Positions 9,808 through 62,076 of a stretch of DNA of 64,000 bases are shown piece by piece. Location of the stretch: assembly GCA_035463855.1 (NCBI GenBank), contig DATHSW010000395.1, forward strand, positions 121 to 64,120. Direction: 5' to 3'. Origin of the DNA: Candidatus Deferrimicrobiaceae bacterium. GTDB lineage: Bacteria; Methylomirabilota; Methylomirabilia; Rokubacteriales; CSP1-6. A program made the translations under genes and the position numbers. Numbering within the stretch: position 1 is the stretch's first letter; the number at the start of each line of letters is the position of its first letter. Under the pieces are notes generated by a model. It saw nothing but the letters and a program-made list of their open reading frames with translations, ran no database searches and was not told the origin of the DNA.

Positions 9808-10419
9808 CTACGATGGACGGCCCACCGGCAACAGCGAGAGCGGCTCCTCGTCACGCGCCAGACCCAGGACTCGCTTCACTCGGCCGTCCTCGAAGGCCCC
9901 GACGACCACGGCGCCGAGACCGAGCGCGGCGGCTTGAAGGCAGACGTTCTGGGCCGCGTGGCCCACCTCCATGTGCACGTAGCGGATTCCCCGCTCGCCG
10001 TACTTCGCGGTCGTACGCTCGTACACCCCACTGAGCGCGATGACCGCCGCGCCGGCCTCCACGCAGTCCTGCCCGAGCGCCGCCGCGCTGAGCTCCCGTC
10101 GCCGGTCGCCCTCCCTGGTCAAGACGAGCTCATGCCGGTCGGGTTTGTACCGGTAGATCGCGCTCGGCAGACCGTCCACGTCTCCGATCACCACGTCGAC
10201 TTCCAGAGGGTAGAGCGCGCCGGCCGACGGGGCGGTCCGGAGGCCTTCAGGACCCGTGACCCCCTGAGCCGCCCAGAGGAGCTGGGCCAGCTCATCCTGA
10301 GTCAACGGCTTCCGCGAATACTCCCTGACCGATCTGCGCACTTGCAGCACGCGCTCGAGCGATCGCTCGCTCGACCGCGTGAGCCGCGACAGCCTGACCG
10401 GCGTGCTGACCGCGCTCAT
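9808..10419 (-). CDS. SagB-type dehydrogenase / nitroreductase-family protein
   Basis: 203 aa with RRSVREYS, LAQLLWAAQGVTG, PSAGALYPLE and a nitroreductase-fold C-terminus. Confidence 0.75.
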   Translation of the reverse strand: MSAVSTPVRLSRLTRSSERSLERVLQVRRSVREYSRKPLTQDELAQLLWAAQGVTGPEGLRTAPSAGALYPLEVDVVIGDVDGLPSAIYRYKPDRHELVLTREGDRRRELSAAALGQDCVEAGAAVIALSGVYERTTAKYGERGIRYVHMEVGHAAQNVCLQAAALGLGAVVVGAFEDGRVKRVLGLARDEEPLSLLPVGRPS

Positions 10420-10703
10420 GCTCGCCCCCTCCGGGCCGCCCCGCCCCGATCGCGGGTCGGGTCGTCGCTCGGCTTCTCCGCGCGAGTGCGCGGTCTTGGG
10501 TGCACCGGAACTGTCGCGCCCTCGTGGACCGCGAATTGCCCGCGCCGGGGCTCGGCCAGACGGAGATACTCGGTCGCGCGCATCCGGATCGCGCTGCGAT
10601 GATCTCCGGCGGGCATCGCGATGTCGCGCTGGTCGACGAGCGCCTCCTCCACGAACGCCGGCATGTCAAAGAGGCGGCCGAAGGGCGGGATCGCGCCCAG
10701 CAT
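10416..10703 (-). pseudogene. possible truncated YbaK/aminoacyl-tRNA-deacylase-like remnant
   Basis: MLGAIPPFGRLFDMPAFVEEALVDQRDIAMPAGDHRSAIRM resembles only the C-terminal third of YbaK/EbsC domains. The N-terminal part is absent because the CBS gene ends at 10714. A low-complexity tail follows. Confidence 0.3.
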
Positions 10704-10713
10704 CGCGTCCTCT

Positions 10714-11133
10714 TCATCGGCGCTCTCCGGGCGTTCCCACGAACGCCCGGATCACATCGGTGACGGTGAGCATCCCGACCACCCGGCCCGCGTCGGCCAC
10801 CGGCAGGGCGCCGAGCTTGCGATCGTGCATGATGCGGGCGGCGGCGCGGATGTCGGTGTCGGGGCCCACGGTGATGACGGCCCAGGTCATGATCTCGTTC
10901 ACTCTCAGACGAGCGAGCGTGCCCGCCAGCTGGCCCGGCTCTTCCTCAAGGCACCGTTCGAGGATTACCAGCCGGAGATCATGATCGGTGAGCATCCCGA
11001 TGAGCCGGCGGTCGGCGTCGAGCACCGGGAGATGGCGCACCTGCCGCGTCCGCATGATGCTCCAGGCGTCCGCGACGGTGGCGTCGTGTCCGATCGTGAC
11101 CAGCGAGCCGGCCATCAAGTCAGCGACCCGCAT
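10714..11133 (-). CDS. CBS-pair domain protein
   Basis: 139 aa with two CBS motifs (VRHLPVLDADRRLIGMLTDHDL and LGALPVADAGRVVGMLTVTDV). Confidence 0.85.
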   Translation of the reverse strand: MRVADLMAGSLVTIGHDATVADAWSIMRTRQVRHLPVLDADRRLIGMLTDHDLRLVILERCLEEEPGQLAGTLARLRVNEIMTWAVITVGPDTDIRAAARIMHDRKLGALPVADAGRVVGMLTVTDVIRAFVGTPGERR

Positions 11134-11524
11134 CGCGGCCCCCGGCCCTCATCACGCGGCCGTGGGCCGCACGAGCATCACGGGAACCGTGGCCTTCGCG
11201 AAGACCCGCTCGGCCACGCTGCCCAGCGGCGAGGATCTCTGCGACCGGATCGCCGAAGCGCACGACACCCTCCACCGGCACGTCGCCGAAGTGGACCTCA
11301 AGCGTACGCAGGTAATCGAGGCCTTCGCTGGTGAGGCTCTCGGTCTCCTGATCCGCGTACACCACGACACGGCCCTCCGCGTTGTGGACGGCCGATGGCT
11401 CGGGTGCCACGTGCAGCAGCCGCGCCGTTGCGTGAGCGCCGCGGGCGGTGTCGGCCACGATGGCCGCAACGGCATCCGTGCGAGGTGAACGGTCGACCGC
11501 CAGCAGGATCTTTTTGGTCGTCAT
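11120..11524 (-). CDS. universal stress protein (UspA family)
   Basis: MTTKKILLAVDRSP start after the ribosome-binding site GGGAGG. The domain is shorter than the other USP copies and lacks their clear C-terminal G-x2-G-x9-G(S/T) ATP-binding motif. Confidence 0.8.
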   Translation of the reverse strand: MTTKKILLAVDRSPRTDAVAAIVADTARGAHATARLLHVAPEPSAVHNAEGRVVVYADQETESLTSEGLDYLRTLEVHFGDVPVEGVVRFGDPVAEILAAGQRGRAGLREGHGSRDARAAHGRVMRAGGRDAGR

Positions 11525-11576
11525 GATAGCCTCCCGGACACGCTCGACGCGGAGCACTGCCTTTTCTCGTCTTTTG

Positions 11577-11592
11577 AGCAACCGAAATGCCA
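11577..11592 (-). promoter_or_regulatory. sigma-54 type -24/-12 promoter for the USP-CBS-(YbaK remnant)-SagB operon
   Basis: Minus strand reads TGGCAT-TTCGG-TTGCT, about 55 nt upstream of ATG 11524. Confidence 0.6.
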
Positions 11593-11708
11593 AGAATGGG
11601 AGTCAATGATTCCACGATGTTCGCGAGCTGGCACGCGGCCCCTGACCGAGGTGCGACGGGGCGGGAAGGCCCCACTGTAGCGGGCCGGCCCCATACCTTC
11701 CGGGCACG

Positions 11709-14700
11709 TCATGGGTCCCGCCTCGGTCGGCGCGGTGAGGCGGTGGCGCGGGCCACGGCCTTCCTCCCTTCCTCGAGCAACAGCATCGCGGGGGGGATCC
11801 ACAAGAGGAATCCCCACTCCGAGACGCCGAGGGCCGCGAGGCCGAAAGCCTCCGCCAGCGGTGGCGTGATAATGAGCAGCAGCAAGAGGCCGAGCTCGGC
11901 CGTGATTCCCACGAAGACGAGTGGGTTCCCGAAGAGGCCGGCGCGGAAGACCGACTCCCGATCGGTGCGGCAGGCGAATACGTTACCGACCTGGGCGGCG
12001 ACGATACCCGCGAGCGTCATCGTGGTCGCCCTCCGGTAGAGGGCACCGGTGGCCGCCATCGGCATCCCCGGTCGCCAGCCCGTCAGCCAGTAAGTCCAGA
12101 AGAAGGCAGCCAGAGCGAAGACGGCTTCGGCGGCCCCGAGGAAACCGTACGCATGCAGCAGGCGTCGGGCCCCGAGCAAGCGCTCGCTGCGGCCACGCGG
12201 CGGCTGGTCCATGACGCCCGGCTCGGGCGGCTCGGCCCCGAGCGCCAGCGCGGGCAGCAGGTCGGTACCGAGATCCACGGCCAGGATCTGCATGACCGTG
12301 AGCGGCAGCGGGATCCCGAGCAGCACGAACGCCAGGTAGGGCACCAGCTCGGGCACGTTGGAGGCGAAGATGTAGGTGACGAACTTGCCCATGTTGGCGT
12401 AGATGGCCCTCCCCTGCCGGACCGCCGAGACGATCGAGGCGAAGTTGTCGTCGGTGATCACCACGACGGCCGCCTCCTTCGCCACCTCGCTGCCCCGCCC
12501 TCCCATCGCCACCCCGACGGCGGCGGCCTTGAGAGCCGGGGCGTCGTTCACCCCGTCACCGGTGACGGCCACGACGTGGCCAGCCGCGGCCAGAGCCGAC
12601 ACGAGGGCGAGCTTGTGAGCGGGCGACGTCCTCGCGAAGAGCACGGCGGGCTCGGCGAGCAGTCGCTCCAACAGCTCGGGCGTCAGCCGTTCCAGCTCCT
12701 CGCCCGTGACGACTTTCTCGACCGGGAGGCCGACCTGGCGCGCAATGGCCTGCGCGGTGAGACCGTAGTCTCCCGTCACCATGATCACCCGGATACCGGC
12801 CCGGTGACACATGGCCACCGCCTCGGCAACCTCGGGACGGGGAGGATCCCAGAGCGCCACCATTCCCAGGAAGGTCAGCTGCTGCTCGACGCGGGAGGCT
12901 CCGCCGTCCAGCAGCTCATCGGCAATCGGGCGAGTGGCAACGGCCAGCATCCGAAGGCCTTCCGCGGCGAGACGGTCATGCTCCTGCTCGACGGCGCGGC
13001 GGATGGCGTCGGTGAGCAGTTCGGTGCGCCCGCTCCATCGGATCGTCTCGCAGAGAGCGAGCGTCTCCCGGGGCGCACCCTTGACGAAGGCCACCGGGCC
13101 GTCGGCGGTCGCGCGGATCAGGGTCATCCGCTTCCGGAACGAGTCGAAGGGGTGCGGGGCCAACAATGGGTGCGCCGTCCTGACCTTCGTGGGGTCCACG
13201 CCGGCGCGGGCGGCCGCCACCATCATGGCCACTTCGGTGGGATCGCCGCGCTCGGCGCTCGCCTGGGAGGCCAGCGCGGCGGCCTCGAAGAGCTCCTGCA
13301 CGCCGTCGGCGCCGCCCGTACCGGGGTCTGCGAGCGCACGCGTCCGCCCCGCCGCCCAGGCGAAGCGGGCCTCCATGCGTCCCTGGGTCAGAGTGCCGGT
13401 CTTGTCGGTGCAGATCACGGTGGTGGCGCCCAGCGTTTCGACCGCGGATAGCCGCTTGACGATGCAGGCGCGCCGGGCCATGCCCTGAACGCCGAGCGCA
13501 AGGGCGAGGGTCAGCGTCGGCAGCAGGCCCTCGGGCACGTTGGCGACGATCACGCCGAGGGCGAACACCAATCCGTCGCCGACGGAAAGGAGACCGAGCG
13601 CCGCACCCAACGCGAAGAAGGCCGCCCCAAAAGAGACCGCCAGCACGGTCACGACCCTCGTTACCCACGCCATCTCGCGCTGTAGCGGGCTCGGCGCCTC
13701 CGCCACGGCCTGCGTCAGGTGCGCAATGGCGCCGATCTCCGTCTGCATGCCCGTCGCGCGAGCCACCATGGTCCCGGTGCCGGCCACGACACCCGTGCCC
13801 GCGAAGACGAGCTCCTGGCACTCCAGGAAGGGGATCCGCGAGCGCGACTCGCCGGCGGCGGCGAGCTTGAACACCGGATGGGCCTCACCGGTGAGGGCAC
13901 TCTGGTCCACGCGCAGACCGGCGGCCGAGAGGAGCTGACCGTCGGCCGGAATCTGATCGCCTTCCTCGAGCCGGACGACATCTCCGGGGACGAGCCCCGT
14001 CACGATCAGGCGCTCCTCGCGACCGCCGCGCAACACCGTGATCTGCTGGGGCAGCATCGCTTGCAGCGCCTCCACCGCCCGCTCGGCCCGGTACTCCTGA
14101 AGGAAGCTGAACACACCGTTGACGACGATGACGCCGAAGATGGCCCAGCCGAGCTGCGGCATTCCGGCGAGGAACGCGCAGGCCCCTCCGATCCAGAGCA
14201 GCACCGCGAAGAAGCTCCAGAACTGCTCGAGGAAGCGGGCGACGAGCGGACGCCGCCGGATGCGCTCGAGCCGATTGGACCCGCAGGCGTGGAGGCGAAG
14301 CTCAACTTCGTCCGCAGCGAGCCCGTCGGGCCCGGACCCGAGGAGCGCCAGCACGTCGGCGGGCGCCAGCGCCGCCTCGCCGGCATGCTCTTCCGCCAGG
14401 GCCAGCACCCGCACGAGGCTCTCGCGGGTCGTCGCGGACACGGCGGCCTCCCGCACGGCCGCTTCGGCCAGGCAGGCGCAGAGCCGGGACACCAGCCGCA
14501 GGGCGCGCCCGCTCTCGGCAACGGGCGAGGTCAGCACGAGCGCGATCTCGGCGGAAGGGAGATCGGCCGCGAGCCGCGGCGCATGCGGCAGGCGCACCCA
14601 GCGCAGGCCCATGCCGCCGGAGGGTCGGGTGAGCGCGTGGGCCAGCACGACGCCGGGCGCGATCGTCAAGAGTCCAATCGGCCCTTCGAGATCGAGCCGC

Positions 14701-14789
14701 TCCGAGAGTGCGGCCGCCGAGGCGACGTCGGCCCCCAGCACGACCGGATCGCCGATGAGGAACGGGGAGATGGAGGGGGCCCGTGCCAT
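11709..14789 (-). CDS. P-type cation-transporting ATPase (type II-like) with an N-terminal extension of about 140 aa
   Basis: DKTGTLT phosphorylation site, VTGDGVNDAPALKAA hinge and 10 TM helices. The canonical N-terminus (GLAADEVELRLHACGSNRLE) begins only near residue 155. Confidence 0.9.
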   Translation of the reverse strand: MARAPSISPFLIGDPVVLGADVASAAALSERLDLEGPIGLLTIAPGVVLAHALTRPSGGMGLRWVRLPHAPRLAADLPSAEIALVLTSPVAESGRALRLVSRLCACLAEAAVREAAVSATTRESLVRVLALAEEHAGEAALAPADVLALLGSGPDGLAADEVELRLHACGSNRLERIRRRPLVARFLEQFWSFFAVLLWIGGACAFLAGMPQLGWAIFGVIVVNGVFSFLQEYRAERAVEALQAMLPQQITVLRGGREERLIVTGLVPGDVVRLEEGDQIPADGQLLSAAGLRVDQSALTGEAHPVFKLAAAGESRSRIPFLECQELVFAGTGVVAGTGTMVARATGMQTEIGAIAHLTQAVAEAPSPLQREMAWVTRVVTVLAVSFGAAFFALGAALGLLSVGDGLVFALGVIVANVPEGLLPTLTLALALGVQGMARRACIVKRLSAVETLGATTVICTDKTGTLTQGRMEARFAWAAGRTRALADPGTGGADGVQELFEAAALASQASAERGDPTEVAMMVAAARAGVDPTKVRTAHPLLAPHPFDSFRKRMTLIRATADGPVAFVKGAPRETLALCETIRWSGRTELLTDAIRRAVEQEHDRLAAEGLRMLAVATRPIADELLDGGASRVEQQLTFLGMVALWDPPRPEVAEAVAMCHRAGIRVIMVTGDYGLTAQAIARQVGLPVEKVVTGEELERLTPELLERLLAEPAVLFARTSPAHKLALVSALAAAGHVVAVTGDGVNDAPALKAAAVGVAMGGRGSEVAKEAAVVVITDDNFASIVSAVRQGRAIYANMGKFVTYIFASNVPELVPYLAFVLLGIPLPLTVMQILAVDLGTDLLPALALGAEPPEPGVMDQPPRGRSERLLGARRLLHAYGFLGAAEAVFALAAFFWTYWLTGWRPGMPMAATGALYRRATTMTLAGIVAAQVGNVFACRTDRESVFRAGLFGNPLVFVGITAELGLLLLLIITPPLAEAFGLAALGVSEWGFLLWIPPAMLLLEEGRKAVARATASPRRPRRDP

Positions 14790-14809
14790 CGGCGAAGATC
14801 CGCTTGCCC

Positions 14810-16504
14810 TCAGCTTCGCCCGAGCAGGGCTCTCAGCTCGCGGCCGCGCCTGGGCCGACCCAGCTTCCGCAGGGCGTGCGCCTCGATCTGACGGATCCGC
14901 TCTCGGGACAAGGACAGGCGCGTCGCGATCTCCTGGAGCGTGTGCTCGTGATCGGTCCCGATTCCAAACCGAAGCCGCAGGATCTCGCGCTCCTTGCCCG
15001 ACAGCGCCTTCAGCGCCTGCCGCACGCGGGTCACGGTCTCCTCGCTCAGGACGGCGACATCCGGGCTGGCAATCTCCTTGTCCTCGAGCAGATCGCCCAG
15101 CTGCGACTCCTCCTCACCGATCGGAGCCTGCAAGGATAGCGTCCGACCGGGAGCTTCCAGGAGCAGGCGAACCTGGCGGGCGGGCACCCGCATCATCACG
15201 GCCAGCTCCTCCGGAGTGGCTTCGCGTCCAAGCTTCGCCTCCAGGCTCCGCCTCACGCTCGATAGCCGGTACAGCTTCTCCGCCACATGGACCGGCACGC
15301 GGATCATGCGGGCGCGGTCGGCGATGCCCCGGGTCACGGACTGGCGGATCCACCACGTCGCATACGTCGAGAACCGGAACCCGCGGCGATACTGGAAGCG
15401 ATCCACCGCCTTGATCAGGCCGAGGTTGCCTTCCTGGATCAGATCGAGCAGGGAGATTCCGCTTCCACGATATCGCTTCGCCACCGAGACGACGAGTCGA
15501 AGATTCGCCTCGATCAGCTCCCGCTTGGCCTCGCGGACCAGGCGGTCCTGCTCCTGGATCCCGGACACGATCTCCCGGAACCGGTCGCGTCGGAGCCCGA
15601 CCTGCTTCTCCAGCTCTCGGAGGGCTCTGGTGCGTTCGCGGCCCGGCGAGCGGCCTTCCAGCTCCCGGATGCGCCCGCCCAGGCCCCCGAGCGTCGACGC
15701 CAGATCCTCGAGCACGACGGGCTTGATCGGAAGCCCCGCCACGATCTGCTGCACGCGCTCCCGATCGCGGGCGATCTGCCGTTCGACCAGCGCGCGCGCC
15801 GCGGCGGATCGCCTCCGTCCCCCGGGGGCGCGCTCCAGTCTGCCGATCGCCTGCTCGATGCGCTTGACCCGGGCAAACGCGGCCAGGACGCTCCGCACCC
15901 TCGCCGGCGTCGGCTCACGCGCTTCCGGCACGAGGATGAGGCCCTCGGGCGGGGTCTTGCCCGTCCGCACATCCTCGGCCCGGCCGAGCAGGGTCTGAAC
16001 GCCGAGCGGAACGGCGGCAAGCGCCCGGCGCAACTCGGTCTGACCCGCTTCGATGCGCTGGCCGATCTGCACTTCCTGGGCGGCGGTCAGCAACTTGGCC
16101 TTGCCGATCTCCGTGAGGTACCTGGTCGTCGGGTCCTCGGCCGCCGGCGCCGCCTCTTCGATCTCCTCTTCTTCTTCCGCTCCCTCTACCTCGAGCTCCT
16201 CTTCCGCTCTCTCTGCATCGAGCGTCCCGAGCACTCCGGCCGATTCGAGGACCAGCTCCGTCGCGGGCTTGATCGGCCGAGCCTCGGCCCGCTCCAGGGC
16301 GGCCCCGGGATTGCCGGTGACTCGACCGATCCGGCGGCGCCGGGGGCCCGGAGCCGGCTGGAGGGGAAGCCGTAGCTGCGAGACCGGCAGCACTCCCCAG
16401 CGCACCGCCCGCTCCCGCCACTCGCGGTCAGACTCCGAGAAGCGGCCCGCGCGCGGGATCCCCGATCGGCCCCGGCTGGATCGCGGCACGTGTGCGCTCC
16501 TCAC
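14810..16504 (-). CDS. RNA polymerase sigma-70 family factor, RpoD-like (paralog 1); start uncertain
   Basis: Region 1.2 [17 protein letters not shown], region 2 [35 protein letters not shown], region 4.2 [20 protein letters not shown], and an acidic spacer. The proposed GTG at 16504 overlaps the DUF2267 stop as GTGA. Confidence 0.8.
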
Positions 16505-16902
16505 GCCTCGGCTTGCGCTTCGACCCACACTTCCTTGAGACTCTTCGGCAGCTGCGCGAGAACGTCCCCCGCCTCGCCCGGCGACAGCTGTTCCTTCAGC
16601 GCCGCGAAGACCGCGAGCGTCATCCACCGCGCTTCGCGAGCCGACGCCAGCCCGGTCTCACGGCGCACTCGCTCGCGGAAGTCCTCCCACTTCAGCTTGA
16701 GCGGTCTCCGCTCGGGCGCCTCGCCCTCTTCCCACACGGTCTTCAACTCGAGCGGAAGCTGGGCGACGACCTGATCGGCTTCGATCGGGGTGAGCCGATC
16801 TCGCAACGCGTGAAACACCGCCGCGGTCGCGCGTCGTGCCGCCGCCGGATCTCCCTGGTGGCTCGTGTCCATAACGGTCCGGTAGAAAGACTGTGCCGTC
16901 AT
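16501..16902 (-). CDS. DUF2267-like protein
   Basis: [12 protein letters not shown]... with two repeats of the motif A..VF.AL...L...E...V.AQLP..LK.VW. The ribosome-binding site GGAGGAGGAGG precedes ATG 16902. Confidence 0.65.
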
Positions 16903-17043
16903 GCTCTCCTCCTCCTCCCGTCCCAGGATTGCGTAGTTAGCCACCCAGCTCGCCTCGGGGACGTCCTGCCTCAGACGTGCTGGTCCTCCGCGACACTCCG
17001 GTCGGAGGCCGGCGTCGATGCCGGTGACGATTACGCCATCCAA
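16903..17043 (-). pseudogene. relic of a GYD-domain gene in the 5' leader of the DUF2267 gene
   Basis: Translation ...LRQDVPEASWVANYAILG matches RRDCPQVKWVANYAILG of the intact GYD gene at 62567-62860. The DNA at 16922-16948 matches 62718-62744 at about 24 of 27 positions. Confidence 0.5.
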
Positions 17044-17046
17044 AGG

Positions 17047-17062
17047 AGCATTGCCGGTGCCA
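17047..17062 (-). promoter_or_regulatory. sigma-54 type -24/-12 promoter for the DUF2267-sigma factor(-ATPase) operon
   Basis: Minus strand reads TGGCAC-CGGCA-ATGCT. Confidence 0.55.
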
Positions 17063-17204
17063 AGCGGGGGGTGCCGTGTTTATGGCCACTTCGCCCCGCC
17101 CCATCCCGATGTCTGCGGCATCGCTGCCCCACTGGGTCGTGACTTCCTTGGGGCGGCTCCCTGAGGCGCCTGGGTCAACTTCCCGATCCGACGTGCTTTC
17201 TGAA

Positions 17205-17220
17205 TGGCATGAGCCTTGCC
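17205..17220 (+). promoter_or_regulatory. sigma-54 type -24/-12 promoter for the Cys-rich small ORF and PIMT-like gene
   Basis: TGGCAT-GAGCC-TTGCC, 48 nt upstream of ATG 17268. It diverges from the promoter at 17047. Confidence 0.5.
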
Positions 17221-17267: not shown

Positions 17268-17432
17268 ATGGACATGTGCATCTGTGGACATTCGGAGAGG
17301 GACCATCGCCCAACGGGCGAGTGCCGTGCGGCAGGTTGCCGCTGCAAGAGCTTCGAACCGGTTCCCGAGATCCACCGCGCCCAACCCTGCCCGCCACGGC
17401 TGACGGCCAGCTCTCCCACCAACGGTCGGTAG
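17268..17432 (+). CDS. small Cys/His-rich protein, copy 1 (54 aa), unknown family
   Basis: MDMCICGHSERDHRPTGECRAAGCRCKSFEP... matches 57189-57404 at 27 of the first 31 residues. The DNA differences between the copies are mostly synonymous. Confidence 0.55.
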   Translation: MDMCICGHSERDHRPTGECRAAGCRCKSFEPVPEIHRAQPCPPRLTASSPTNGR

Positions 17433-18271: not shown

Positions 18272-19684
<1,413 letters not shown>

Positions 19685-19753: not shown

Positions 19754-19769
19754 AGCATTGCCTGTGCCA
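19754..19769 (-). promoter_or_regulatory. sigma-54 type -24/-12 promoter for degP/htrA
   Basis: Minus strand reads TGGCAC-AGGCA-ATGCT, about 70 nt upstream of the start. It is nearly identical to the promoter at 17047. Confidence 0.6.
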
Positions 19770-19947
19770 GCTCGCCTTCGCGGCCCGGGCGACGGGAAAC
19801 CGCTTCGCGGCCACGTTCACTTGTCGGTGCTCATGCGAGTCCATTCCGCGGCGATGGGGCGCTCGCGCCCCAGATGGGACATGAGTGCCAGCCACGGGCC
19901 CCGCGCTTCACTGCGGGCCTCGTCGAGTTACCGATGGCTTGGCGCTG

Positions 19948-19963
19948 AGGCACGGAGCTTGCT
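19948..19963 (+). promoter_or_regulatory. candidate sigma-54 promoter for sigma factor paralog 2
   Basis: AGGCAC-GGAGC-TTGCT. The GC of the -12 box lies only 16 nt before ATG 19978, which implies a near-leaderless mRNA. Confidence 0.45.
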
Positions 19964-21312: not shown

Positions 21313-21328
21313 CCGGACGGAGGGGAAA

Positions 21329-22701: not shown

Positions 22702-22745
22702 GTGCGCACGCGAGCTCGCGAGACGGCTTTGGTCGGCGGCGACCC

Positions 22746-24162: not shown

Positions 24163-24178
24163 TGCAACGCGAGTGCCA
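24163..24178 (-). promoter_or_regulatory. sigma-54 type -24/-12 promoter for the hsp20-pcm-Zn ribbon-IHF operon
   Basis: Minus strand reads TGGCAC-TCGCG-TTGCA, a perfect match to the consensus, about 55 nt upstream of ATG 24109. Confidence 0.7.
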
Positions 24179-24265
24179 GCGCGAACCGCCGTCGATTCAG
24201 CGGGTTGCCCCGGTCGTGCCGGCGGCCGCCGAGGCACGACCGCCCCGGTGTGGCCGACCCGCCCC
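24163..24265 (-). repeat. 103-bp conserved promoter module, copy 2 of 3
   Basis: Same length and block structure as 4595-4697 and 57155-57257. In addition it carries the inverted repeat ggtcgtgcc-N12-ggcacgacc. Confidence 0.6.
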
Positions 24266-24309: not shown

Positions 24310-24325
24310 CGGCACCTGCCTTGCA
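24310..24325 (+). promoter_or_regulatory. sigma-54 type -24/-12 promoter for the CBS / ACP-FAAL-acyltransferase / HdeD operon
   Basis: CGGCAC-CTGCC-TTGCA, 41 nt upstream of ATG 24366. It diverges from the hsp20 promoter. Confidence 0.5.
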
Positions 24326-36189: not shown

Positions 36190-36205
36190 TGCAACCGCCT
36201 TGCCA
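36190..36205 (-). promoter_or_regulatory. sigma-54 type -24/-12 promoter for the CBS-CBS-basic-basic-USP-polX-ligA(-nadE) gene string
   Basis: Minus strand reads TGGCAA-GGCGG-TTGCA, about 30 nt upstream of ATG 36159. Confidence 0.6.
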
Positions 36206-36279: not shown

Positions 36280-36291
36280 CCTCAGCTGAGG
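36280..36291. promoter_or_regulatory. perfect 12-bp palindrome CCTCAGCTGAGG, candidate activator (UAS) site
   Basis: Centred about 82 bp upstream of the GG of the promoter at 36190. A near-identical element sits at the same offset upstream of the paralogous promoter at 59932. Confidence 0.35.
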
Positions 36292-36318
36292 CGCGCGGGC
36301 CCCATGCCCCGGGCAGGG

Positions 36319-37680: not shown

Positions 37681-37696
37681 TGCAACTCGGCTGCCA
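37681..37696 (-). promoter_or_regulatory. candidate sigma-54 promoter for the malic enzyme gene
   Basis: Minus strand reads TGGCAG-CCGAG-TTGCA. The -12 GC lies only 14 nt before ATG 37668, which implies a near-leaderless mRNA. Confidence 0.45.
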
Positions 37697-37841: not shown

Positions 37842-37857
37842 GGGCACGAAGCTTGCT
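37842..37857 (+). promoter_or_regulatory. candidate sigma-54 promoter for the lipoprotein-MlaC pair
   Basis: GGGCAC-GAAGC-TTGCT, 26 nt upstream of ATG 37883. Confidence 0.45.
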
Positions 37858-45986: not shown

Positions 45987-46002
45987 TGCAACTCCGCTGC
46001 CA
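45987..46002 (-). promoter_or_regulatory. sigma-54 type -24/-12 promoter for the IHF-CBS-cDPGS-like-hsp20-lon-ldt-ycbK operon
   Basis: Minus strand reads TGGCAG-CGGAG-TTGCA, about 28 nt upstream of ATG 45959. Confidence 0.65.
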
Positions 46003-46122
46003 CCAGCCATGCGCTCAAAAGACCGTGATCCCGTCAGGTTGCGCCGCGGGGGCACGATCCCGATGGGGCGGCTCCACCCCAGCCGGGGCGGCACGTCCCC
46101 GCCGTCGGGCCACGTCCCCAAC

Positions 46123-49165: not shown

Positions 49166-49181
49166 AGCAAGGCGTGTGCCA
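49166..49181 (-). promoter_or_regulatory. sigma-54 type -24/-12 promoter for the secreted protein / PYW-rich / glycine-zipper cluster
   Basis: Minus strand reads TGGCAC-ACGCC-TTGCT, 22-28 nt upstream of the start. Confidence 0.6.
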
Positions 49182-49300
49182 CCGGCCGGAGCTCGGAACC
49201 CGTTGATTCCGTGCGGGGCTGGTCTCGCGCGATCAGCGCGATCCGACCGCCTGGGGCGGCGGAGTCCCATCGGCATGGGCGCGGCCGCCCCGCCACGGCT

Positions 49301-49316
49301 CGGCACCGGCCTTGCA
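49301..49316 (+). promoter_or_regulatory. candidate sigma-54 promoter for the glycoside-hydrolase-like gene
   Basis: CGGCAC-CGGCC-TTGCA, of the same form as the promoter at 24310. The -12 GC lies 22 nt before ATG 49337. Confidence 0.45.
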
Positions 49317-52045: not shown

Positions 52046-52061
52046 AGCAAGGACGGTGCCA
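52046..52061 (-). promoter_or_regulatory. sigma-54 type -24/-12 promoter for the CBS-S2P operon
   Basis: Minus strand reads TGGCAC-CGTCC-TTGCT, about 35 nt upstream of ATG 52012. Confidence 0.65.
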
Positions 52062-56625: not shown

Positions 56626-56657
56626 CGGAGCATCACCCCCCACCCGGCGGGTTCCCC

Positions 56658-57101: not shown

Positions 57102-57154
57102 GACTGCTCCTCCTTCTGATGAGAGTGTTTCGGTGAACCCCAGGCCACTGCGAC

Positions 57155-57170
57155 TGCATCACCAGTGCCA
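57155..57170 (-). promoter_or_regulatory. sigma-54 type -24/-12 promoter for the hsp20-pcm-USP operon
   Basis: Minus strand reads TGGCAC-TGGTG-ATGCA, the same 16-mer as at 4595-4610. Confidence 0.65.
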
Positions 57171-57257
57171 GCCGGGAGCTCCATGGATTCAAGAGCTTGC
57201 CATCGCCCGGCGGACGACCGCCGGGGCGCTCTCGCCCCCATGTGGCCGCGGCGCCCC
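57155..57257 (-). repeat. 103-bp conserved promoter module, copy 3 of 3
   Basis: Gap-free alignment with 4595-4697. It overlaps the 3' tail of the Cys-rich ORF. Confidence 0.7.
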
Positions 57258-57404
57258 AGCGCTCGTGAGCCCATCGTTCGACGCGGCGCGATGGCGCGGG
57301 AGGCGAATCTCCGGTTTGAAGTGTCTGCAGCGGCAGCCCGCGGCACGGCATTCGCCCGTCGGGTCGTGCTCCCGTTCCGAATGCCCACAGATGCACATGT
57401 CCAT
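57189..57404 (-). CDS. small Cys/His-rich protein, copy 2 (71 aa; conserved part is the first ~30 aa)
   Basis: MDMCICGHSEREHDPTGECRAAGCRCRHFKP.... The tail diverges from copy 1 and runs into the promoter module. Confidence 0.5.
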   Translation of the reverse strand: MDMCICGHSEREHDPTGECRAAGCRCRHFKPEIRLPRHRAASNDGLTSAGAPRPHGGESAPAVVRRAMASS

Positions 57405-57868: not shown

Positions 57869-58318
57869 CTATTTCCCGGTGCGCGCCCTGATGCATTCGC
57901 CAACCAGCAGGGCCGCTGGATAGAGGATCTGCTCCTCGCTGAGGGCATGGAGCCTGAGCGCCTCCGCGAAGCGGGCGGCCTCCGGCTTCTTCTCCTGCTT
58001 CGCCGCGGCGGCCAGCCGGCGCAGCGCCCCGACGACCATCTTGTGCTCCGCCAGCATCTGCGGCAGCTCGGCCCGCAGCTTGTCGGTCAACGGGAGCACG
58101 TCCCTCATCTCGGGCGTCACGCGCCCCCCGGCGATCTCGGCGAGGAGCCCGAGCGGTGGCAGCGCGAATTCCTCCTCCTTGACGAAATGCGGATGGAGCA
58201 GGGTGGCGACGGTCCGCGCGACTTCACCGACCTTGCCGCGCCGAAGCGTCAGCTTGACCAGCTCCGCATGGAGCACCTCGTGCTCCGCCACCAGCGCCTG
58301 GGGGATCTTCGGAATCAT
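57869..58318 (-). CDS. hemerythrin-like (HHE cation-binding) domain protein
   Basis: 149 aa with repeated H...E and H..(EE) spacing: AEHEVLH, HPHFVKEEEFALP, AEHKMV, HALSEEQILYP. Confidence 0.6.
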   Translation of the reverse strand: MIPKIPQALVAEHEVLHAELVKLTLRRGKVGEVARTVATLLHPHFVKEEEFALPPLGLLAEIAGGRVTPEMRDVLPLTDKLRAELPQMLAEHKMVVGALRRLAAAAKQEKKPEAARFAEALRLHALSEEQILYPAALLVGECIRARTGK

Positions 58319-58352: not shown

Positions 58353-58829
58353 TCATTTCACCGCCGCCCGGGCGACACGCCTGGCCACCTGGGCTTCCGT
58401 GGCCCGCATCAGGAACACGGGCATGTCGACATGGCGGAGCACGGCCTGGGCGACGGACCCGAACACGAGCCGGCCCAGACCGCCGCGGCCGTGGGTGGAC
58501 ATCGCGATGAGGTCGGCACCCGTCTCGCGGGCGGCCGCCACGATCTCCTCGGCCGGATTGCCCCGGCGCACCCGGCTCTCCACCTTCACGCCCTTGTTTC
58601 GCAGCTCCACCGCGATCGGCGCCAGGTACTCCTCGGCATCCGTGCGCCGCGCCTCGATGTCCTCCACCTCGACGTGCCGCGAGCCCTCGATCACCATGGG
58701 CGCGAGCGGCTCGACAACCCGGAGCAGGTCCACCTCCATGTCGAGCGGGCCGGCGATGTCGAGGATGAACGGAATGATGGCTTCGGCCACCGGCGAGCCG
58801 TCGAGCGGTACCAGCGCGCGCTTATACAT
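58353..58829 (-). CDS. universal stress protein (UspA family)
   Basis: MYKRALVPLDGSPVAE ... STHGRGGLGRLVFGSVAQAV. Confidence 0.85.
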   Translation of the reverse strand: MYKRALVPLDGSPVAEAIIPFILDIAGPLDMEVDLLRVVEPLAPMVIEGSRHVEVEDIEARRTDAEEYLAPIAVELRNKGVKVESRVRRGNPAEEIVAAARETGADLIAMSTHGRGGLGRLVFGSVAQAVLRHVDMPVFLMRATEAQVARRVARAAVK

Positions 58830-59313
58830 TGGACCTCTCCTTGGCGGGTCGGGCCTGGCCCGTTCCCTCAGGTGCCTCGATGGGCGCCTCGGGGGCCCGT
58901 AGCAGCAGGATCGGCGTGGTCGTTCCGCGCAGCACCGACTCGGCCACGCTGCCCAGAATCAGCCGGCCCAGCCCGCCGCGCCCATGTGTGGTCATCACGA
59001 TGAGGTCGGCCTTGCGCGCCCGCGCCGCGTCCACGATGGCGGCGGCCGCGGGCCCGTACCATACGCTGGTCTCCACCTTGGAGAGGCCTTGCTGCTTGAG
59101 GCGTTCCGCCACACCGGCCAGATACGTCTCGGCCTCCCGGACCACCGCGACCTGGGCATCGGTGGGATCCGCTCCAGGGAACGTGTGCGCCTCCGCGGCG
59201 CGCACCAGCACGAGGCTGGCCACCCCGGGATGGGCCATCCCCACCGCCGTGGTGATCGCAGATTCGGCGAGCGTGGACCCGTCGAGCGGAACCAGGATCT
59301 TGTCGATCTTCAT
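58822..59313 (-). CDS. universal stress protein (UspA family)
   Basis: MKIDKILVPLDGSTLAE ... TTHGRGGLGRLILGSVAESV. Overlaps the downstream USP by 8 nt. Confidence 0.85.
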   Translation of the reverse strand: MKIDKILVPLDGSTLAESAITTAVGMAHPGVASLVLVRAAEAHTFPGADPTDAQVAVVREAETYLAGVAERLKQQGLSKVETSVWYGPAAAAIVDAARARKADLIVMTTHGRGGLGRLILGSVAESVLRGTTTPILLLRAPEAPIEAPEGTGQARPAKERSNV

Positions 59314-59355: not shown

Positions 59356-59916
59356 TCAGGCTTCGGCGCCCCAGCGGCCGGGCTGGGAGATCACGCCCTC
59401 GTCCAGCATCTGGATCACCGCCTTCAGGACGTCGCCGACCGCGAGCATACCGATCACGCGGTCGTGCTCCACGACCGGTAAGGCCCCGACCTTGTTGGCG
59501 TGGATCACGCCGGCCGCCTCGCGGAGCAGGGTCTCCGGTTTCACGCTGATCGTCCCCCAGGTCATCACGTCCTTGACGGTCTGGCTCCTGAGCACGCGAT
59601 CCAGGTCCTCGAACGCGTCGCGGAGGGCGGGCTCGAGAACGACGGAGCGGAGGTCGCGGTCGCTCACCATGCCGACGAGACGCCCCTTGTCGTCGACCAC
59701 CGGCGCGTGACGGATGTTCCGAGCCCGCATGGCCTTCACGGCGGCGCCCACCGTCATCGCCTGGCGGAACGTCACCGCCGGGCGCGCCATGACGTCGCGG
59801 ACCCGCACCACACCCTCCGGCCAGGCAGACTCCTCGAGCTCGCGCCGCGCGCCGGCCGGGCGCTTTGGATTCCGAGTCCTGATGTCCCGGGTGATCGCTC
59901 GCTTCGGGTGTTTCAT
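59356..59916 (-). CDS. CBS-pair domain protein with a basic N-terminal extension (paralog of 35599-36159)
   Basis: MKHPKRAITRDIRTRNPKRPAGARRELEESAWPEG... followed by two CBS motifs. Ribosome-binding site AGGAGGG. Confidence 0.85.
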   Translation of the reverse strand: MKHPKRAITRDIRTRNPKRPAGARRELEESAWPEGVVRVRDVMARPAVTFRQAMTVGAAVKAMRARNIRHAPVVDDKGRLVGMVSDRDLRSVVLEPALRDAFEDLDRVLRSQTVKDVMTWGTISVKPETLLREAAGVIHANKVGALPVVEHDRVIGMLAVGDVLKAVIQMLDEGVISQPGRWGAEA

Positions 59917-59931
59917 GAGATCCCTCCTGTT

Positions 59932-59947
59932 TGCATCCCCCCTGCCA
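59932..59947 (-). promoter_or_regulatory. sigma-54 type -24/-12 promoter for the CBS-USP-USP-hemerythrin-DUF3175 operon
   Basis: Minus strand reads TGGCAG-GGGGG-ATGCA, about 16 nt upstream of ATG 59916. Confidence 0.55.
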
Positions 59948-60022
59948 ATCGTCGGCGGCCGCGACCCCTTTTGAAACCCGACATTGTCCGCCATGCGGCC
60001 GGGCACCGCTGAGGCTCCTCCT

Positions 60023-60034
60023 CCCCAGCTGAGG
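60023..60034. promoter_or_regulatory. near-palindrome CCCCAGCTGAGG, candidate activator (UAS) site
   Basis: Centred about 83 bp upstream of the GG of the promoter at 59932. It is the counterpart of CCTCAGCTGAGG at 36280. Confidence 0.3.
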
Positions 60035-60055
60035 CGAACACTCCCCATGCCCCGG

Positions 60056-60889
60056 TCACCTCCGGCGATATATCCCGGACTTCGCGGACCAGACCTCGAC
60101 CCCGGGGACACCATCCGGCAGCGACTCGCCCCTGCCGATCACCAGCGCGCCCCCGGGCGCCAGACGCTCGACGATCGTTCGCAGGGCGTTGCGCTGCCCG
60201 GCCTCATCGAAGTACGTGAATGCCACGTTCCGGCAGAGAATCAGATCAAACGGCCCCGGTGGGGCCGCCTGGCGTACGTCCTGCTCCACGAACGTCACGC
60301 CGTCCCGGTACGCCTCCCCTACGCACCACTCCTGAGCGGTCGGGACGAAGGCTCGCTCGAGATAGGCCGGCGGCAGGTCCTTGAGGCTGCTCCACGCGTA
60401 GCAGCCGCGGCGCGCGCGCGCGAGATTCCCGGGGTCGACGTCGGTGGCCAGGACGCGTAGACGGAGGTCGGGCAGGCGGAGGCCGGGCCCCAGACGCCAG
60501 ACGATGGCGAGCGAATAGGGCTCCTCCCCGGACGCGCAACCGATGCTCCAGCAGCCGAGCTCGGTCGCGCCTCGGGCCAGCGCCAGTGCTCCCAGCTCCG
60601 GCAGGACTTCCTCCTCCAGGTACTGGAAGACGCCGCGATCCCGGTAGAAGCGCGAGATGGGGATCCGGCAGAGCTCGTCGAGCATCGCCCATTCGCCGGC
60701 GTGGGTATCGAGATGGGCGCGATACGCGGAAAGGCCCGACAAGCCCAGCTCCTGCATCCGTCGGGTCATCCGCTTGTACACGCGTTTGCGAACCTTCCGG
60801 AAGCCCGGCCAGCGCAGCCCAAGCCGGGGGAGGCACCACTGGAGAAACTGGATGCCCTCGGAGTCCTGGACGGATGGGATGGGACTCAC
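60056..60889 (-). CDS. CheR-type protein-glutamate O-methyltransferase (orphan; no other che genes in the window)
   Basis: 277 aa with RIPISRFYRD, SAM-binding CWSIGCASGEEPYSLA and DLILCRNVAFTYF. Confidence 0.8.
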   Translation of the reverse strand: MSPIPSVQDSEGIQFLQWCLPRLGLRWPGFRKVRKRVYKRMTRRMQELGLSGLSAYRAHLDTHAGEWAMLDELCRIPISRFYRDRGVFQYLEEEVLPELGALALARGATELGCWSIGCASGEEPYSLAIVWRLGPGLRLPDLRLRVLATDVDPGNLARARRGCYAWSSLKDLPPAYLERAFVPTAQEWCVGEAYRDGVTFVEQDVRQAAPPGPFDLILCRNVAFTYFDEAGQRNALRTIVERLAPGGALVIGRGESLPDGVPGVEVWSAKSGIYRRR

Positions 60890-60909
60890 CCGCCGTCCAC
60901 GCGGACGTC

Positions 60910-60925
60910 AGGTACGCCGCTTGCA
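60910..60925 (+). promoter_or_regulatory. weak candidate sigma-54 promoter for capA
   Basis: AGGTAC-GCCGC-TTGCA. GG/GC spacing is correct but the -24 box is degenerate. The -12 GC lies 16 nt before ATG 60940. Confidence 0.25.
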
Positions 60926-60939
60926 CCGTCGTGTCGATC

Positions 60940-62076
60940 ATGGAGCGCCCCACGTCCACCGACCGGCGGGCCGGGCTGTTGACCGTCTTCCTGTGCGGGG
61001 ACGTCATGACCGGCCGGGGCATCGACCAGGCCCTCCCGCATCCGAGCGACCCCCGCATCCACGAGCCGTTCGTCAAGGACGCCGGCCGGTACGTGGATCT
61101 GGCCGAGGCCGCGAACGGCCCGGTCCCACGGCCGGTGGACTTCTCGTACATCTGGGGCGCGGCGCTGGACGAGCTCGCCCGCGTCGCGCCGGACGCCCGC
61201 ATCGTCAACCTGGAAACCAGCATCACCCACAGTGACGGGTACTGGCCGGAGAAGGAGATCCACTACCGGATGCACCCGGACAATGTCCAGTGCCTCACCG
61301 CGGCGGGAATCGACGTGTGCGCCCTGGCGAACAACCACGTGCTGGATTTCGGCCACGCCGGGCTCCGGGAGACGCTCGAAACGCTGGCGCGGGTCGGATT
61401 GAGGACCGCGGGAGCCGGGCGCACCCTGGCCGAAGCCCGCGCGCCGGCGGTGGTGGAGGTCTCCGGAAAGGGCCGGCTGGTGGTCTTCGGATTCGGAGAC
61501 GAGTCGAGTGGCATTCCCTCGAGCTGGGCCGCGGTGGGGGGCCGGCCGGGGATCGACTTCTTGCCCGACCTGTCGGAGGCAACGGCGGCCGGGATCGTGG
61601 ACCGGGTCCGGGAGGTGAAGCGAGCGCGGGACATCGTCGTCGCGTCCATCCACTGGGGCGGCAACTGGGGCTACGACGTTCCCCCGGCGCAACAGCGCTT
61701 CGCGCGCCGGCTGCTCGATGGCGGCGTCGATATCGTCCACGGTCATTCCTCCCATCATGTCCGGCCGATCGAGATGTACCGGGGAAAGCTCATCCTCTAC
61801 GGCTGCGGCGATTTTCTCAACGACTACGAAGGCATCACCGGCTACGAGGAGTTCCGGGACGACCTCACGCTGATGTACTTCCCGACGCTGCGGCCGGAGA
61901 CCGGCTGCCTCGAGAGCCTTCGGATGACGCCGATGCAGATCCGGAATCTCAGAGCCAACCGCGCCACCCCGGGCGATGCCGCGTGGCTCGGGAGCATGCT
62001 CGGCCGGATAAGCCAGCCACTCGGGGCGCGCGTCGAGCTCACCGCCGACGGCACTCTGGCGCTCCGCCCCGCGTGA
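60940..62076 (+). CDS. CapA/PGA_cap family metallophosphatase-like protein
   Basis: 378 aa with FLCGDVMTGRGID, ANNHVLDFG, HWGGNWGY, HGHSSHH. Confidence 0.8.
   Translation: MERPTSTDRRAGLLTVFLCGDVMTGRGIDQALPHPSDPRIHEPFVKDAGRYVDLAEAANGPVPRPVDFSYIWGAALDELARVAPDARIVNLETSITHSDGYWPEKEIHYRMHPDNVQCLTAAGIDVCALANNHVLDFGHAGLRETLETLARVGLRTAGAGRTLAEARAPAVVEVSGKGRLVVFGFGDESSGIPSSWAAVGGRPGIDFLPDLSEATAAGIVDRVREVKRARDIVVASIHWGGNWGYDVPPAQQRFARRLLDGGVDIVHGHSSHHVRPIEMYRGKLILYGCGDFLNDYEGITGYEEFRDDLTLMYFPTLRPETGCLESLRMTPMQIRNLRANRATPGDAAWLGSMLGRISQPLGARVELTADGTLALRPA

Follow-up and report, generated by a model that had tools for sequence, protein, structure and literature searches.

Does the 64-kb stretch of Candidatus Deferrimicrobiaceae contig DATHSW010000395.1 studied here (hereafter the window) hold a survival programme of the kind that Mycobacterium tuberculosis runs through its dormancy regulator DosR, and if so, what switches it on? 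The question was raised by a preliminary description of the same DNA, which saw in it the protein families of the DosR regulon placed behind sigma-54 promoters. The window has ~70% G+C; 67 genes were called with a codon-usage log-odds model and interval scheduling, and all 67 proteins were scanned against Pfam. Its cyclic 2,3-diphosphoglycerate (cDPG) synthase-like protein is 78-95% identical to proteins from metagenome bins of Methylomirabilota or “Candidatus Rokubacteria,” and the nearest species-representative genomes for it are Candidatus Methylomirabilia metagenome-assembled genomes (MAGs), at 89%. These bacteria are abundant in soils and the subsurface, uncultured, and almost uncharted with respect to the regulation of survival. 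Our answer, which we believe to be probable, is that a single two-component switch, acting via sigma-54 and a shared tandem-dyad enhancer, runs a programme of survival without growth at this island.

Sigma-54 promoters and their shared enhancer

At no more than one mismatch, the motif TGGCAC-N5-TTGCW occurs 17 times in the window against 0.67 expected, a number that 0 of 100 shuffled sequences reached; at no more than two mismatches there are 30 sites against 14 expected. The two doublets, GG and GC, lie exactly 10 nt apart, and neither varies among the orthologous promoters that were aligned. Of the 17 sites, 14 are intergenic and oriented towards a start codon 20-110 nt downstream, while the other three fall inside over-called N-termini: 4595- in the open reading frame (ORF) of an ABC ATPase, and 37681- and 37842+ in that of a malic enzyme, both ORFs having been called too long, judging from the starts of their Pfam domains and the gene lengths in relatives. 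Two extra sites, 17205+ and 59932-, are backed by context and conservation, so that 19 promoters are considered below. Strong sites number 6 per 21 kb in the window, 3-4 in the Rokubacterial loci L001-L003 and ~0.3 in 75 other loci, and in the relatives they stand upstream of the same genes (HU, Hsp20, CBS-M50, malic enzyme, MlaC, and CBS).

Counted by operon, sigma-54 sites precede all seven CBS proteins, all three Hsp20s and three of the four protein-L-isoaspartate methyltransferases (PIMTs; Pfam PCMT), as well as Lon, DegP, the M50 protease, both HU proteins, both sigma factors, the P-type ATPase, the nitroreductase-fold protein and the hemerythrin. Four universal stress proteins (USPs) lie directly behind a site and two more, USP 47118-47555 being one of them, are reachable through read-through only, which is also the only route for sigma-54 transcription of PolX-LigA-NadE. 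The -24/-12 type first ascribed to the promoters is thus borne out by the 17 sites, but not for every gene then listed: the window motif scan found no convincing site for USP 54479-54925, for the CapA-like protein, or for the fusion of an aldehyde:ferredoxin oxidoreductase (AFOR) with a PCMT domain. No match to the RpoN box was found in the window and the collected related loci; the presence of rpoN in the lineage is implied by its GAFTGA-bearing activators. A sigma-54 promoter lies upstream of each of two RpoD-like sigma factors (17047- and 19948+), and this predicted control suggests a possible cascade from sigma-54 to the sigma-70 family.

Once the upstream regions were aligned on the -24 element, the enhancer became visible: at most promoters, two 16-bp dyads, GGGGCG-N4-CGCCCC, lie 60-110 nt upstream, ~19-20 bp apart from centre to centre. 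The core GGGGC-N6-GCCCC, at no more than one mismatch, has 32 matches in the window against 20 expected, and 0 of 100 shuffles reach 32; dyads with an N7 spacing showed no enrichment, and N6 fits. Paired dyads start ~19-20 bp apart (4663/4682, 24231/24250, 46065/46085, 52125/52145, and 57223/57242), with the start of the proximal one usually 59-102 nt upstream of the -24 element. A dyad score of at least 9.5 (of 11) within 150 nt upstream is found at 14 of the 19 promoters, equivalent to 10 of 14 independent upstream regions, compared with 3.9% of random 150-nt windows, and five enhancers lie between divergent promoter pairs. For the composite of enhancer and promoter, GGGG-N8-CCYC-N40-70-YGGCA-N6-WTGCW, there are 20 matches in 205 kb of Rokubacterial DNA and none in 1167 kb of other loci, most of them GC-rich. 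When nine Hsp20 upstream regions from 8 contigs are aligned, both dyads, GAATC, TGGCAC and TGCA are invariant, while the spacers vary. Taken together, the enrichment, the placement, the composite pattern and the invariant blocks with variable spacers are, as far as sequence can tell, the signature of one dedicated enhancer-binding protein. The co-regulation of the island genes that had been proposed earlier is supported at the same level, by one shared enhancer motif upstream of most promoters.

The promoters, enhancers and operons are given here in order along the window (enhancers are predicted upstream activating sequences, UAS, and carry no strand):

184..4551, minus: operon of ABC ATPase, MacB/FtsX permease and phosphoenolpyruvate (PEP) synthase (Pfam); the module follows Hsp20-PCMT-USP in L001
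4595..4610, minus: predicted sigma-54 promoter TGGCACTGGTGATGCA of the ABC-MacB-PEP synthase operon, in the over-called ABC N-terminus; dyads at -68/-87
4663..4697: tandem-dyad enhancer (predicted UAS), GGGGCGCTCCCGCCCC and GTGGCCGCGGCGCCCC
5062..5077, minus: predicted sigma-54 promoter without a GGGGC dyad, upstream of a 65-residue ORF (4798-4995)
9808..11557, minus: operon of USP, CBS pair, short tRNA_edit-like ORF and SagB-type nitroreductase-fold protein
11577..11592, minus: predicted sigma-54 promoter of the USP-CBS-(tRNA_edit fragment)-nitroreductase operon
11658..11692: predicted UAS dyads, GGGGCGGGAAGGCCCC and a weaker second copy
11709..16944, minus: operon of DUF2267, RpoD-like sigma factor (559 residues) and P-type ATPase (P2A, Ca-type-like)
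17047..17062, minus: predicted sigma-54 promoter of the DUF2267/RpoD-like sigma/P2-type ATPase operon
17115..17130: weaker predicted UAS dyad, common to divergent promoters 17047- and 17205+
17205..17220, plus: sigma-54-like promoter of a small Cys-rich ORF (17268-17432) and a PIMT (17460-18179)
19754..19769, minus: predicted sigma-54 promoter of DegP/HtrA (18272-19684)
19856..19871: perfect predicted UAS dyad GGGGCGCTCGCGCCCC, between divergent promoters 19754- and 19948+
19948..19963, plus: predicted sigma-54 promoter of the second RpoD-like sigma factor (20071-21312) and an M28 peptidase (21299-22213)
24163..24178, minus: predicted consensus sigma-54 promoter of Hsp20-PIMT-small ORF-HU (22399-24109)
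24231..24265: predicted tandem-dyad UAS, common to divergent promoters 24163- and 24310+
24310..24325, plus: predicted sigma-54 promoter of CBS/fatty acyl-AMP ligase-acyltransferase/DUF308 (24366-28225)
36190..36205, minus: predicted sigma-54 promoter of CBS-CBS (35107-36159); read-through into two basic ORFs, USP, PolX, LigA and NadE (28238-35104) is possible
36288..36303: predicted UAS dyad GAGGCGCGCGGGCCCC
37681..37696, minus: predicted sigma-54 promoter of the malic enzyme gene (36319 to ~37668); site conserved in L002
37740..37775: predicted UAS dyads, common to divergent promoters 37681- and 37842+
37842..37857, plus: predicted sigma-54 promoter of a MlaC-like protein (37897-38772); site conserved in L003
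38786..45986, minus: operon of HU, CBS, cyclic 2,3-diphosphoglycerate synthase homologue, Hsp20, Lon, YkuD transpeptidase and M15 peptidase
45987..46002, minus: predicted sigma-54 promoter of the HU-CBS-cDPG synthase-like-Hsp20-Lon-L,D-transpeptidase-M15 operon
46065..46100: predicted tandem-dyad UAS, GGGGCGGCTCCACCCC and GGGGCGGCACGTCCCC
49166..49181, minus: predicted consensus sigma-54 promoter of three small envelope or unknown proteins (47792-49144)
49253..49291: predicted tandem-dyad UAS, between divergent promoters 49166- and 49301+
49301..49316, plus: predicted sigma-54 promoter of a DUF4015 glycosyl-hydrolase-like gene (49337-50449)
52046..52061, minus: predicted consensus sigma-54 promoter of CBS (51593-52012) and M50-CBS (50446-51561); conserved in L002 and L082
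52125..52160: predicted tandem-dyad UAS
57155..57170, minus: predicted sigma-54 promoter of Hsp20-PIMT-USP (55526-57101)
57223..57257: predicted tandem-dyad UAS
59932..59947, minus: predicted sigma-54 promoter TGGCAGGGGGGATGCA of CBS-USP-USP-hemerythrin-DUF3175 (57531 to ~59900)
60011..60046: predicted tandem-dyad UAS for promoter 59932-
63877..63892, minus: predicted sigma-54 promoter without a GGGGC dyad, upstream of NTP-transferase-GYD-unknown (62135-63812)

The unusual sequence of promoter 59932-, TGGCAGGGGGGATGCA, recurs upstream of a CBS gene in L001. Two of the promoter-plus-enhancer cassettes, 4594-4697 and 57154-57257, are 87% identical over 104 nt. Hsp20-PCMT-USP and ABC-MacB-PEP synthase form one contiguous stretch in L001, the latter module directly after the former; the cassette seems to have been copied when one operon was split. 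At many promoters a (T/C)GAATC element lies ~20-40 nt upstream of the -24 element (e.g., 24196-24200 and 57188-57192) and may be a bending site for IHF or HU; two HU-family genes belong to the island with this conserved element. One tandem-dyad-like sequence (7442-7477) sits inside the PCMT-coding part of the AFOR-PCMT gene, with no sigma-54 site near it.

Around the cDPG synthase gene, the window was compared with six related contigs (L001, L002, L003, L082, L083, and L084). The same families surround the gene in all six, in rearranged order, and four modules recur: HU-CBS-cDPG synthase-L,D-transpeptidase-M15, Hsp20-PCMT-USP, CBS followed by M50, and ABC-MacB-PEP synthase. Because the families and modules recur in this way, the stress island appears from these contigs to be a conserved but fluid feature of the lineage, and the synteny in related genomes that the preliminary description proposed to look for holds at the level of modules. 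Extra genes of the related islands encode a ribosome hibernation factor, a thermosome-like chaperonin (Cpn60_TCP1), an eRF1-like protein, PGK, and DksA.

A candidate activator and kinase in related contigs

A scan of metagenome contigs with the composite dyad-promoter pattern gave at least 120 loci. Among the matches listed, ~22 lie directly upstream of a USP, Hsp20, CBS, DUF2267 or g47 homologue; the rest (~80% of those listed) are mostly chance, with mixed GC content, and the ORFs after other GC-rich matches appear unrelated by eye (ammonium-transporter-like, radical-SAM-like, sigma-factor-like). In two contigs, L134 and L150, the gene of an NtrC-type response regulator stands immediately upstream of the dyad-promoter unit. 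The L134 protein (224-1618) has, by Pfam, a REC domain (E 5e-28), a Sigma54_activat domain (2e-70) and a helix-turn-helix (HTH) domain, HTH_8 (6e-7), and the GAFTGA loop is present in the activators of L134, L150 and L205-L208. L134 and L150 are 74% identical over the 307 residues of the partial L150 protein, HTH included; conservation within the family is 73-99%, and the names given by its sources refer to Methylomirabilota/Rokubacteria. Another activator, in L156, is 44% identical and differs in its HTH; it probably belongs to a different system and was left aside. A phmmer search with an approximate PspF core as query had found no match in 81 loci; the same query later matched in other loci.

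Dyads and a sigma-54 promoter follow the activator gene in L134, L150, L206, L207, L209 and L210. The next genes are a pair of USPs in L206, L207, L209 and L210 and a single USP in L150, while L134 has, after the activator, a dyad-promoter, an APS-kinase-like gene, a CBS gene and a second dyad-promoter-USP unit. The dyads sit at -86/-67 in L206, L207, L209 and L210, a geometry matched in the window at -87/-68. Further downstream come APS-kinase-like, CBS and single-REC genes, and in some contigs citrate synthase and pyruvate:ferredoxin oxidoreductase (PFOR). From this conserved adjacency we infer that the candidate activator acts through the dyad.

In all five of the long contigs, a PAS-HisKA-HATPase kinase gene precedes the activator gene with a 4-nt overlap. 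Two PAS domains are present in three of the five kinases. PAS 2 of the L206 kinase matches FixL haem-PAS structures (E ~1e-13) and DosP; the equivalents of FixL His200 (the proximal ligand) and Arg220 align, Gly-Arg included, and the equivalent of Arg206 is Ala. The L205 kinase keeps the aligned FixL His. As to its surroundings, the kinase-activator operon has cbb3 oxidase assembly genes (FixNOP/GHIS) beside it in L205 (1-6557, 18725-19932), along with an encapsulin and its EncFtn-like cargo; in L206 and L207 (17600-21400), citrate synthase, a radical-SAM gene and PFOR lie downstream of it.

Gene content, known systems and competing explanations

What would such a switch control? The families named in the preliminary description (7 USPs, 3 Hsp20s, 7 CBS pairs, a nitroreductase fold, a CapA-like protein, a hemerythrin, 4 PIMTs, Lon, DegP and PolX-LigA-NadE, together with the M50 protease carrying CBS) are all recovered by Pfam:

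11120-11557: USP (weak match, E 7e-10)
34138-34620: USP
47118-47555: USP
54479-54925: USP
55526-55972: USP
58353-58829: USP
58822-59313: USP
23669-24109, 43445-43858, 56658-57101: three Hsp20 proteins
10714-11133, 24366-24788, 35107-35571, 35599-36159, 45220-45660, 51593-52012, 59356-60006: seven stand-alone CBS-pair proteins
50446-51561: M50 protease with its own CBS domain (S2P-CBS), directly after CBS 51593-52012
11709-14789: P-type ATPase, followed by USP 11120-11557
9808-10419: nitroreductase-fold protein, SagB-type (TIGR03605, 123 bits)
5255-7903, plus: AFOR with an in-frame C-terminal PCMT/PIMT domain
57869-58318: hemerythrin
60874-62076: CapA-like protein (PGA_cap)
43855-45216, minus: P-loop protein of 453 residues, whose homologues NCBI names cyclic 2,3-diphosphoglycerate synthase

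Four PCMT/PIMT domains are present in the window, one of them fused to the AFOR, and further genes encode two HU proteins, DUF2267, a GYD protein, malic enzyme and PEP synthase. The two RpoD-like sigma factors, 14810-16489 (minus, 559 residues) and 20071-21312 (plus), were absent from the preliminary description, as were these further genes; RpoD/SigA are the best models for both factors, yet neither reaches any of the RpoD, RpoS or SigB equivalog cut-offs. The Pfam-scanned window proteins include no response regulator, no histidine kinase and no sigma-54 activator. The P-loop protein matches no NCBIfam model. Cyclic 2,3-diphosphoglycerate synthase is otherwise associated with hyperthermophilic methanogens; homologues 60-80% identical occur across Alpha-, Beta- and Gammaproteobacteria, cyanobacteria, Dehalococcoidia and Myxococcota MAGs (loci L005-L081), and in several of these genomes, some proteobacterial MAGs among them, the gene lies near PolX, Hsp20, USP, CBS or P-type ATPase genes.

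With the DosR regulon the island shares multiple USPs, alpha-crystallin, a CBS protein beside an M50-CBS protease, a P2-type ATPase, a nitroreductase fold and a CapA-like protein; it adds four PIMTs, Lon, DegP, two HU proteins, the cDPG synthase homologue and sigma factors. Of the two adjacencies drawn in the comparison, CBS followed by M50-CBS (51593-52012, 50446-51561) is real. The ATPase and USP are likewise neighbours but not a single transcription unit, because the USP carries its own sigma-54 promoter; this promoter separates the two genes, which stand in the order opposite to Rv1996-ctpF. At a finer level the ATPase subclass alone matches: a comparison with NCBIfam-type models makes the window ATPase a P2A (Ca-type-like) pump, and CtpF belongs to the same P2 subclass. 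CBS 51593-52012 finds Rv2626c at E 6e-8 as its ~24th PDB match, behind ~23 other CBS proteins; the top PDB matches of this minus-strand protein are CBS-domain chains of the multi-chain entries 9znf, 9zng and 9zni (E 1e-23). The nitroreductase had been set beside acg, a parallel that fails, the protein being SagB-type with no Acg structure matched, and the PDB comparison of one representative window USP returned no chain labelled as a Mycobacterium protein. Judging from these comparisons, the resemblance to DosR-regulon proteins is at the level of families, not orthologues. DosR itself is a NarL/LuxR-type regulator of sigma-70-type promoters bearing DosR boxes, whereas the window has neither: as the preliminary description had stated, there is no sign of the boxes (3 window matches to the half-site palindrome against 4.4 expected), and no Response_reg or LuxR-type protein is present among the window proteins.

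In its control the system would resemble DosS/DosT-DosR, a two-component system with a haem sensor (plausible for the Rokubacterial system) and a role in survival without growth, and the candidate kinase-activator pair would strengthen that analogy because the kinase resembles haem-PAS O2 sensors in some lineages. One difference is that DosS and DosT sense by GAF-haem, not PAS. The FixL-FixJ system offers a second likeness, with PAS 2 of the L206 kinase aligning with the FixL haem-PAS, including the proximal His and Arg220, and matching the DosP type too. It differs in that the Rokubacterial partner is an NtrC-type sigma-54 activator rather than a FixJ/LuxR-type protein, that Arg206 is not kept, and that some orthologous kinases have no FixL-like domain, haem binding being a prediction.

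In the literature collection searched we found no paper on Rokubacteria combined with sigma-54. The earlier view that such a programme had not been described for sigma-54 is nevertheless out of date. In M. xanthus, the NmpRSTU system, induced by hypoxia, passes from a haem-dependent kinase to NmpR, an NtrC-like, sigma-54-dependent regulator; a CBS protein is induced under hypoxia, other regulon members are a USP, a P-type ATPase together with cbb3 oxidase, and HemN together with a hemerythrin, and the authors relate the regulon USPs to the M. tuberculosis dormancy regulon (PMC11841059). The likeness extends to the NtrC-like regulator, to tandem dyads within ~100 bp of -24/-12 promoters, and to the CBS, USP, P-type ATPase and hemerythrin genes. 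In contrast, NmpR sites are GCGCA-N5-TGCGC, 14-15 bp apart, while those of the window are GGGGCG-N4-CGCCCC with 3-4 bp between dyads; NmpRSTU is a four-protein phosphorelay with a globin-coupled kinase, while the Rokubacterial candidate is one PAS kinase; and the NmpR regulon is small (seven promoters bound in gel shift) and centred on respiration (cbb3, HemN; PMC11841059), while the window has at least 17 dyad-bearing promoters in 64 kb and has its centre in Hsp20, PIMT, proteases and HU, together with a compatible-solute enzyme and two sigma factors. A DosR-like set under yet another regulator is the lxa island of B. cenocepacia, ~50 contiguous genes that are induced together when oxygen is low and are needed for anoxic survival, which its authors compared with the DosR regulon (PMC3721108). 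It has six USPs, alpha-crystallin, a nitroreductase and a cation-transporting ATPase, but is controlled by an FNR/Anr-like box (TGA-N6-TCA) and not by sigma-54 (PMC3721108). With these two precedents, the surprise of the window is much reduced. By analogy, the island would work like DosS/T-DosR and NmpRSTU and belong to neither.

FNR/CRP boxes were considered as promoter elements of the window and rejected: TTGAT-N4-ATCAA occurs 13 times against 3.7 expected, but inside genes, not at promoters. An identical FNR-like TTGATCGGGATCGT is found at 23679-23692 and 56668-56681, the 3' coding ends of two Hsp20 genes, and is most likely due to conservation of a C-terminal peptide, not to a binding site.

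The mechanism we propose is as follows. An NtrC-family response regulator (REC, AAA+ with GAFTGA, Fis-type HTH) would be encoded outside the window, its gene sharing an operon with that of a PAS histidine kinase, which would phosphorylate the regulator upon a signal; because the PAS domain is FixL-like, and probably haem-binding, in some lineages, O2, redox state or NO/CO are plausible signals. The activated regulator would assemble on the tandem dyads and remodel the sigma-54 holoenzyme at all dyad promoters together. The predicted output comprises nucleotide-binding USP and CBS proteins, small heat-shock proteins, isoaspartyl repair methyltransferases, Lon, DegP, the M50 protease, HU, the cyclic-diphosphoglycerate-synthase homologue and the P2-type ATPase, and the two RpoD-like sigma factors would form a second regulatory tier.

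Several points weigh against this mechanism. A search of the window, and of the six related islands out to 10 kb, turned up no activator, kinase or rpoN gene, so that we can only presume that the window's own genome carries the activator and kinase. The putative link between activator and dyad is one of conserved gene adjacency. FixL Arg206 is not conserved in the L206 kinase; the L207 kinase has a membrane-associated N-terminus, one PAS domain and no FixL His, and the L209 kinase shares its single-PAS domain list and length. With a sensor that differs in this way between lineages, the signal may not be O2. Some promoter pairs are recent duplicates (4594-4697 and 57154-57257, 87%), which slightly inflates the counts, and promoters 5062- and 63877- have no dyad. 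As both lack the GGGGC dyad, they probably answer to another activator. Upstream of 63877 the AT content is relatively high, and the start of a divergent gene seems to lie at the window edge.

A role in heat, proteotoxic or general stress fits as well as dormancy does, and the same architecture may serve a regulon of that kind, its kinase sensing protein damage, temperature or energy charge; as an account of the island we find this rather unlikely. Heat-shock genes driven by sigma-54 have precedents in lonD of M. xanthus, which is under HsfA, and in ibpB of E. coli. Protein quality control is heavily represented here (3 Hsp20s, Lon, DegP, the M50 protease, and 4 PIMT domains), relatives add the thermosome-like chaperonin (Cpn60_TCP1) and DksA, the FixL-like sensor is missing in two of the five kinases, and a 2025 survey of sigma-54 predicted IbpA, chaperone and USP targets in several phyla, Methylomirabilota not being covered (PMC12316311). 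On the other hand, USP and CBS proteins are the most numerous, with 14 genes; relatives encode a ribosome hibernation factor; the activator operon adjoins cbb3 oxidase genes (L205) or PFOR (L206, L207); and three kinases of the five carry a second PAS domain, that of L206 resembling the FixL/DosP haem-PAS, while L205 keeps the His. The stress and dormancy readings are, moreover, not mutually exclusive.

We give little credence to the view that there is no single regulon, with several activators at work and the likeness of the upstream regions owed to recent cassette duplication and GC-rich composition. The two promoters without a dyad and the 87% identical cassettes agree with it, as do the uneven quality of the dyads (17115 and 60011 score just 9) and the frequency of GC-rich dyads by chance, 20 being expected at one mismatch. 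It does not account for ten independent upstream regions in which a dyad of high score keeps to a narrow range of distances, the background being 3.9%, for a composite pattern with 0 occurrences in 1167 kb of other, mostly GC-rich loci, for dyads that stay invariant across 8 contigs while the spacers drift, or for the -86/-67 geometry beside the activator gene in four independent contigs.

A genuine evolutionary kinship between the island and the DosR regulon, by ancestry or horizontal transfer of the gene set, with the regulator swapped later, is highly improbable: the shared Pfam families, the two similar adjacencies (CBS then M50-CBS; P2-type ATPase beside USP) and the CapA-like and nitroreductase-fold proteins are outweighed by the low rank of Rv2626c (~24th, E 6e-8), a SagB-type nitroreductase without an Acg match, a USP comparison without a Mycobacterium-labelled chain, an ATPase-USP order unlike ctpF-Rv1996 in which the USP has its own promoter, and similar family sets in Burkholderia (lxa) and Myxococcus (NmpR) that, sitting under other regulators, argue for repeated recruitment of widespread families.

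Returning to the two-component switch, its widest form would make the Rokubacterial haem-PAS kinase/NtrC-type pair a master switch over dozens of operons that brings about a dormancy-like state, an independently evolved functional equivalent of DosS/T-DosR. Under its control would come USP and CBS proteins that sense energy, protein repair, nucleoid proteins, the compatible-solute enzyme and two RpoD-like sigma factors as replacements. This widest form we advance tentatively, as possible but somewhat short of probable; if true, the regulon would be much larger than the Myxococcus NmpR regulon and would help to explain the persistence of slow-growing “genomic giants.” New here are the tandem dyad enhancer, its pairing with promoters and the candidate activator, with ~19 operons in 64 kb apparently driven by sigma-54. 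If the switch exists, it would be the second, and much larger, case after Myxococcus NmpR of sigma-54 in adaptation to low oxygen or non-growth, and a compact regulatory code (one dyad, one activator, sigma-54) would predict a maintenance regulon from sequence. USP, CBS, alpha-crystallin, P2-ATPase and M50-CBS would then have been assembled convergently under three or four unrelated regulators (DosR, FNR/Anr, NmpR, and the Rokubacterial one), which would argue for a general bacterial toolkit for non-growth.

Smaller features of the window

Two paralogous small Cys-rich ORFs, 17268-17432 (plus) and 57189-57404 (minus), both begin MDMCICGHSER.H.PTGECRAAGCRC. Both have a sigma-54-like site upstream, and 57189-57404 also overlaps the Hsp20 promoter's enhancer.

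The space that separates CBS-CBS from USP-PolX-LigA-NadE is taken up by two very basic small ORFs, 34633-34851 (minus) and 34883-35104 (minus), of 72 and 73 residues with 26-31% Lys+Arg, both starting MAK...; they may encode nucleoid- or ribosome-associated proteins.

A nested long inverted repeat (47579-47792), with arms of 32 nt and 29 nt that are 81-93% complementary, lies upstream of USP 47118-47555 and could be a large hairpin, a terminator or an element resembling a miniature inverted-repeat transposable element (MITE). Beyond it, as seen from the operon of promoter 49166-, lie USP 47118-47555 and an AIRS-like gene.

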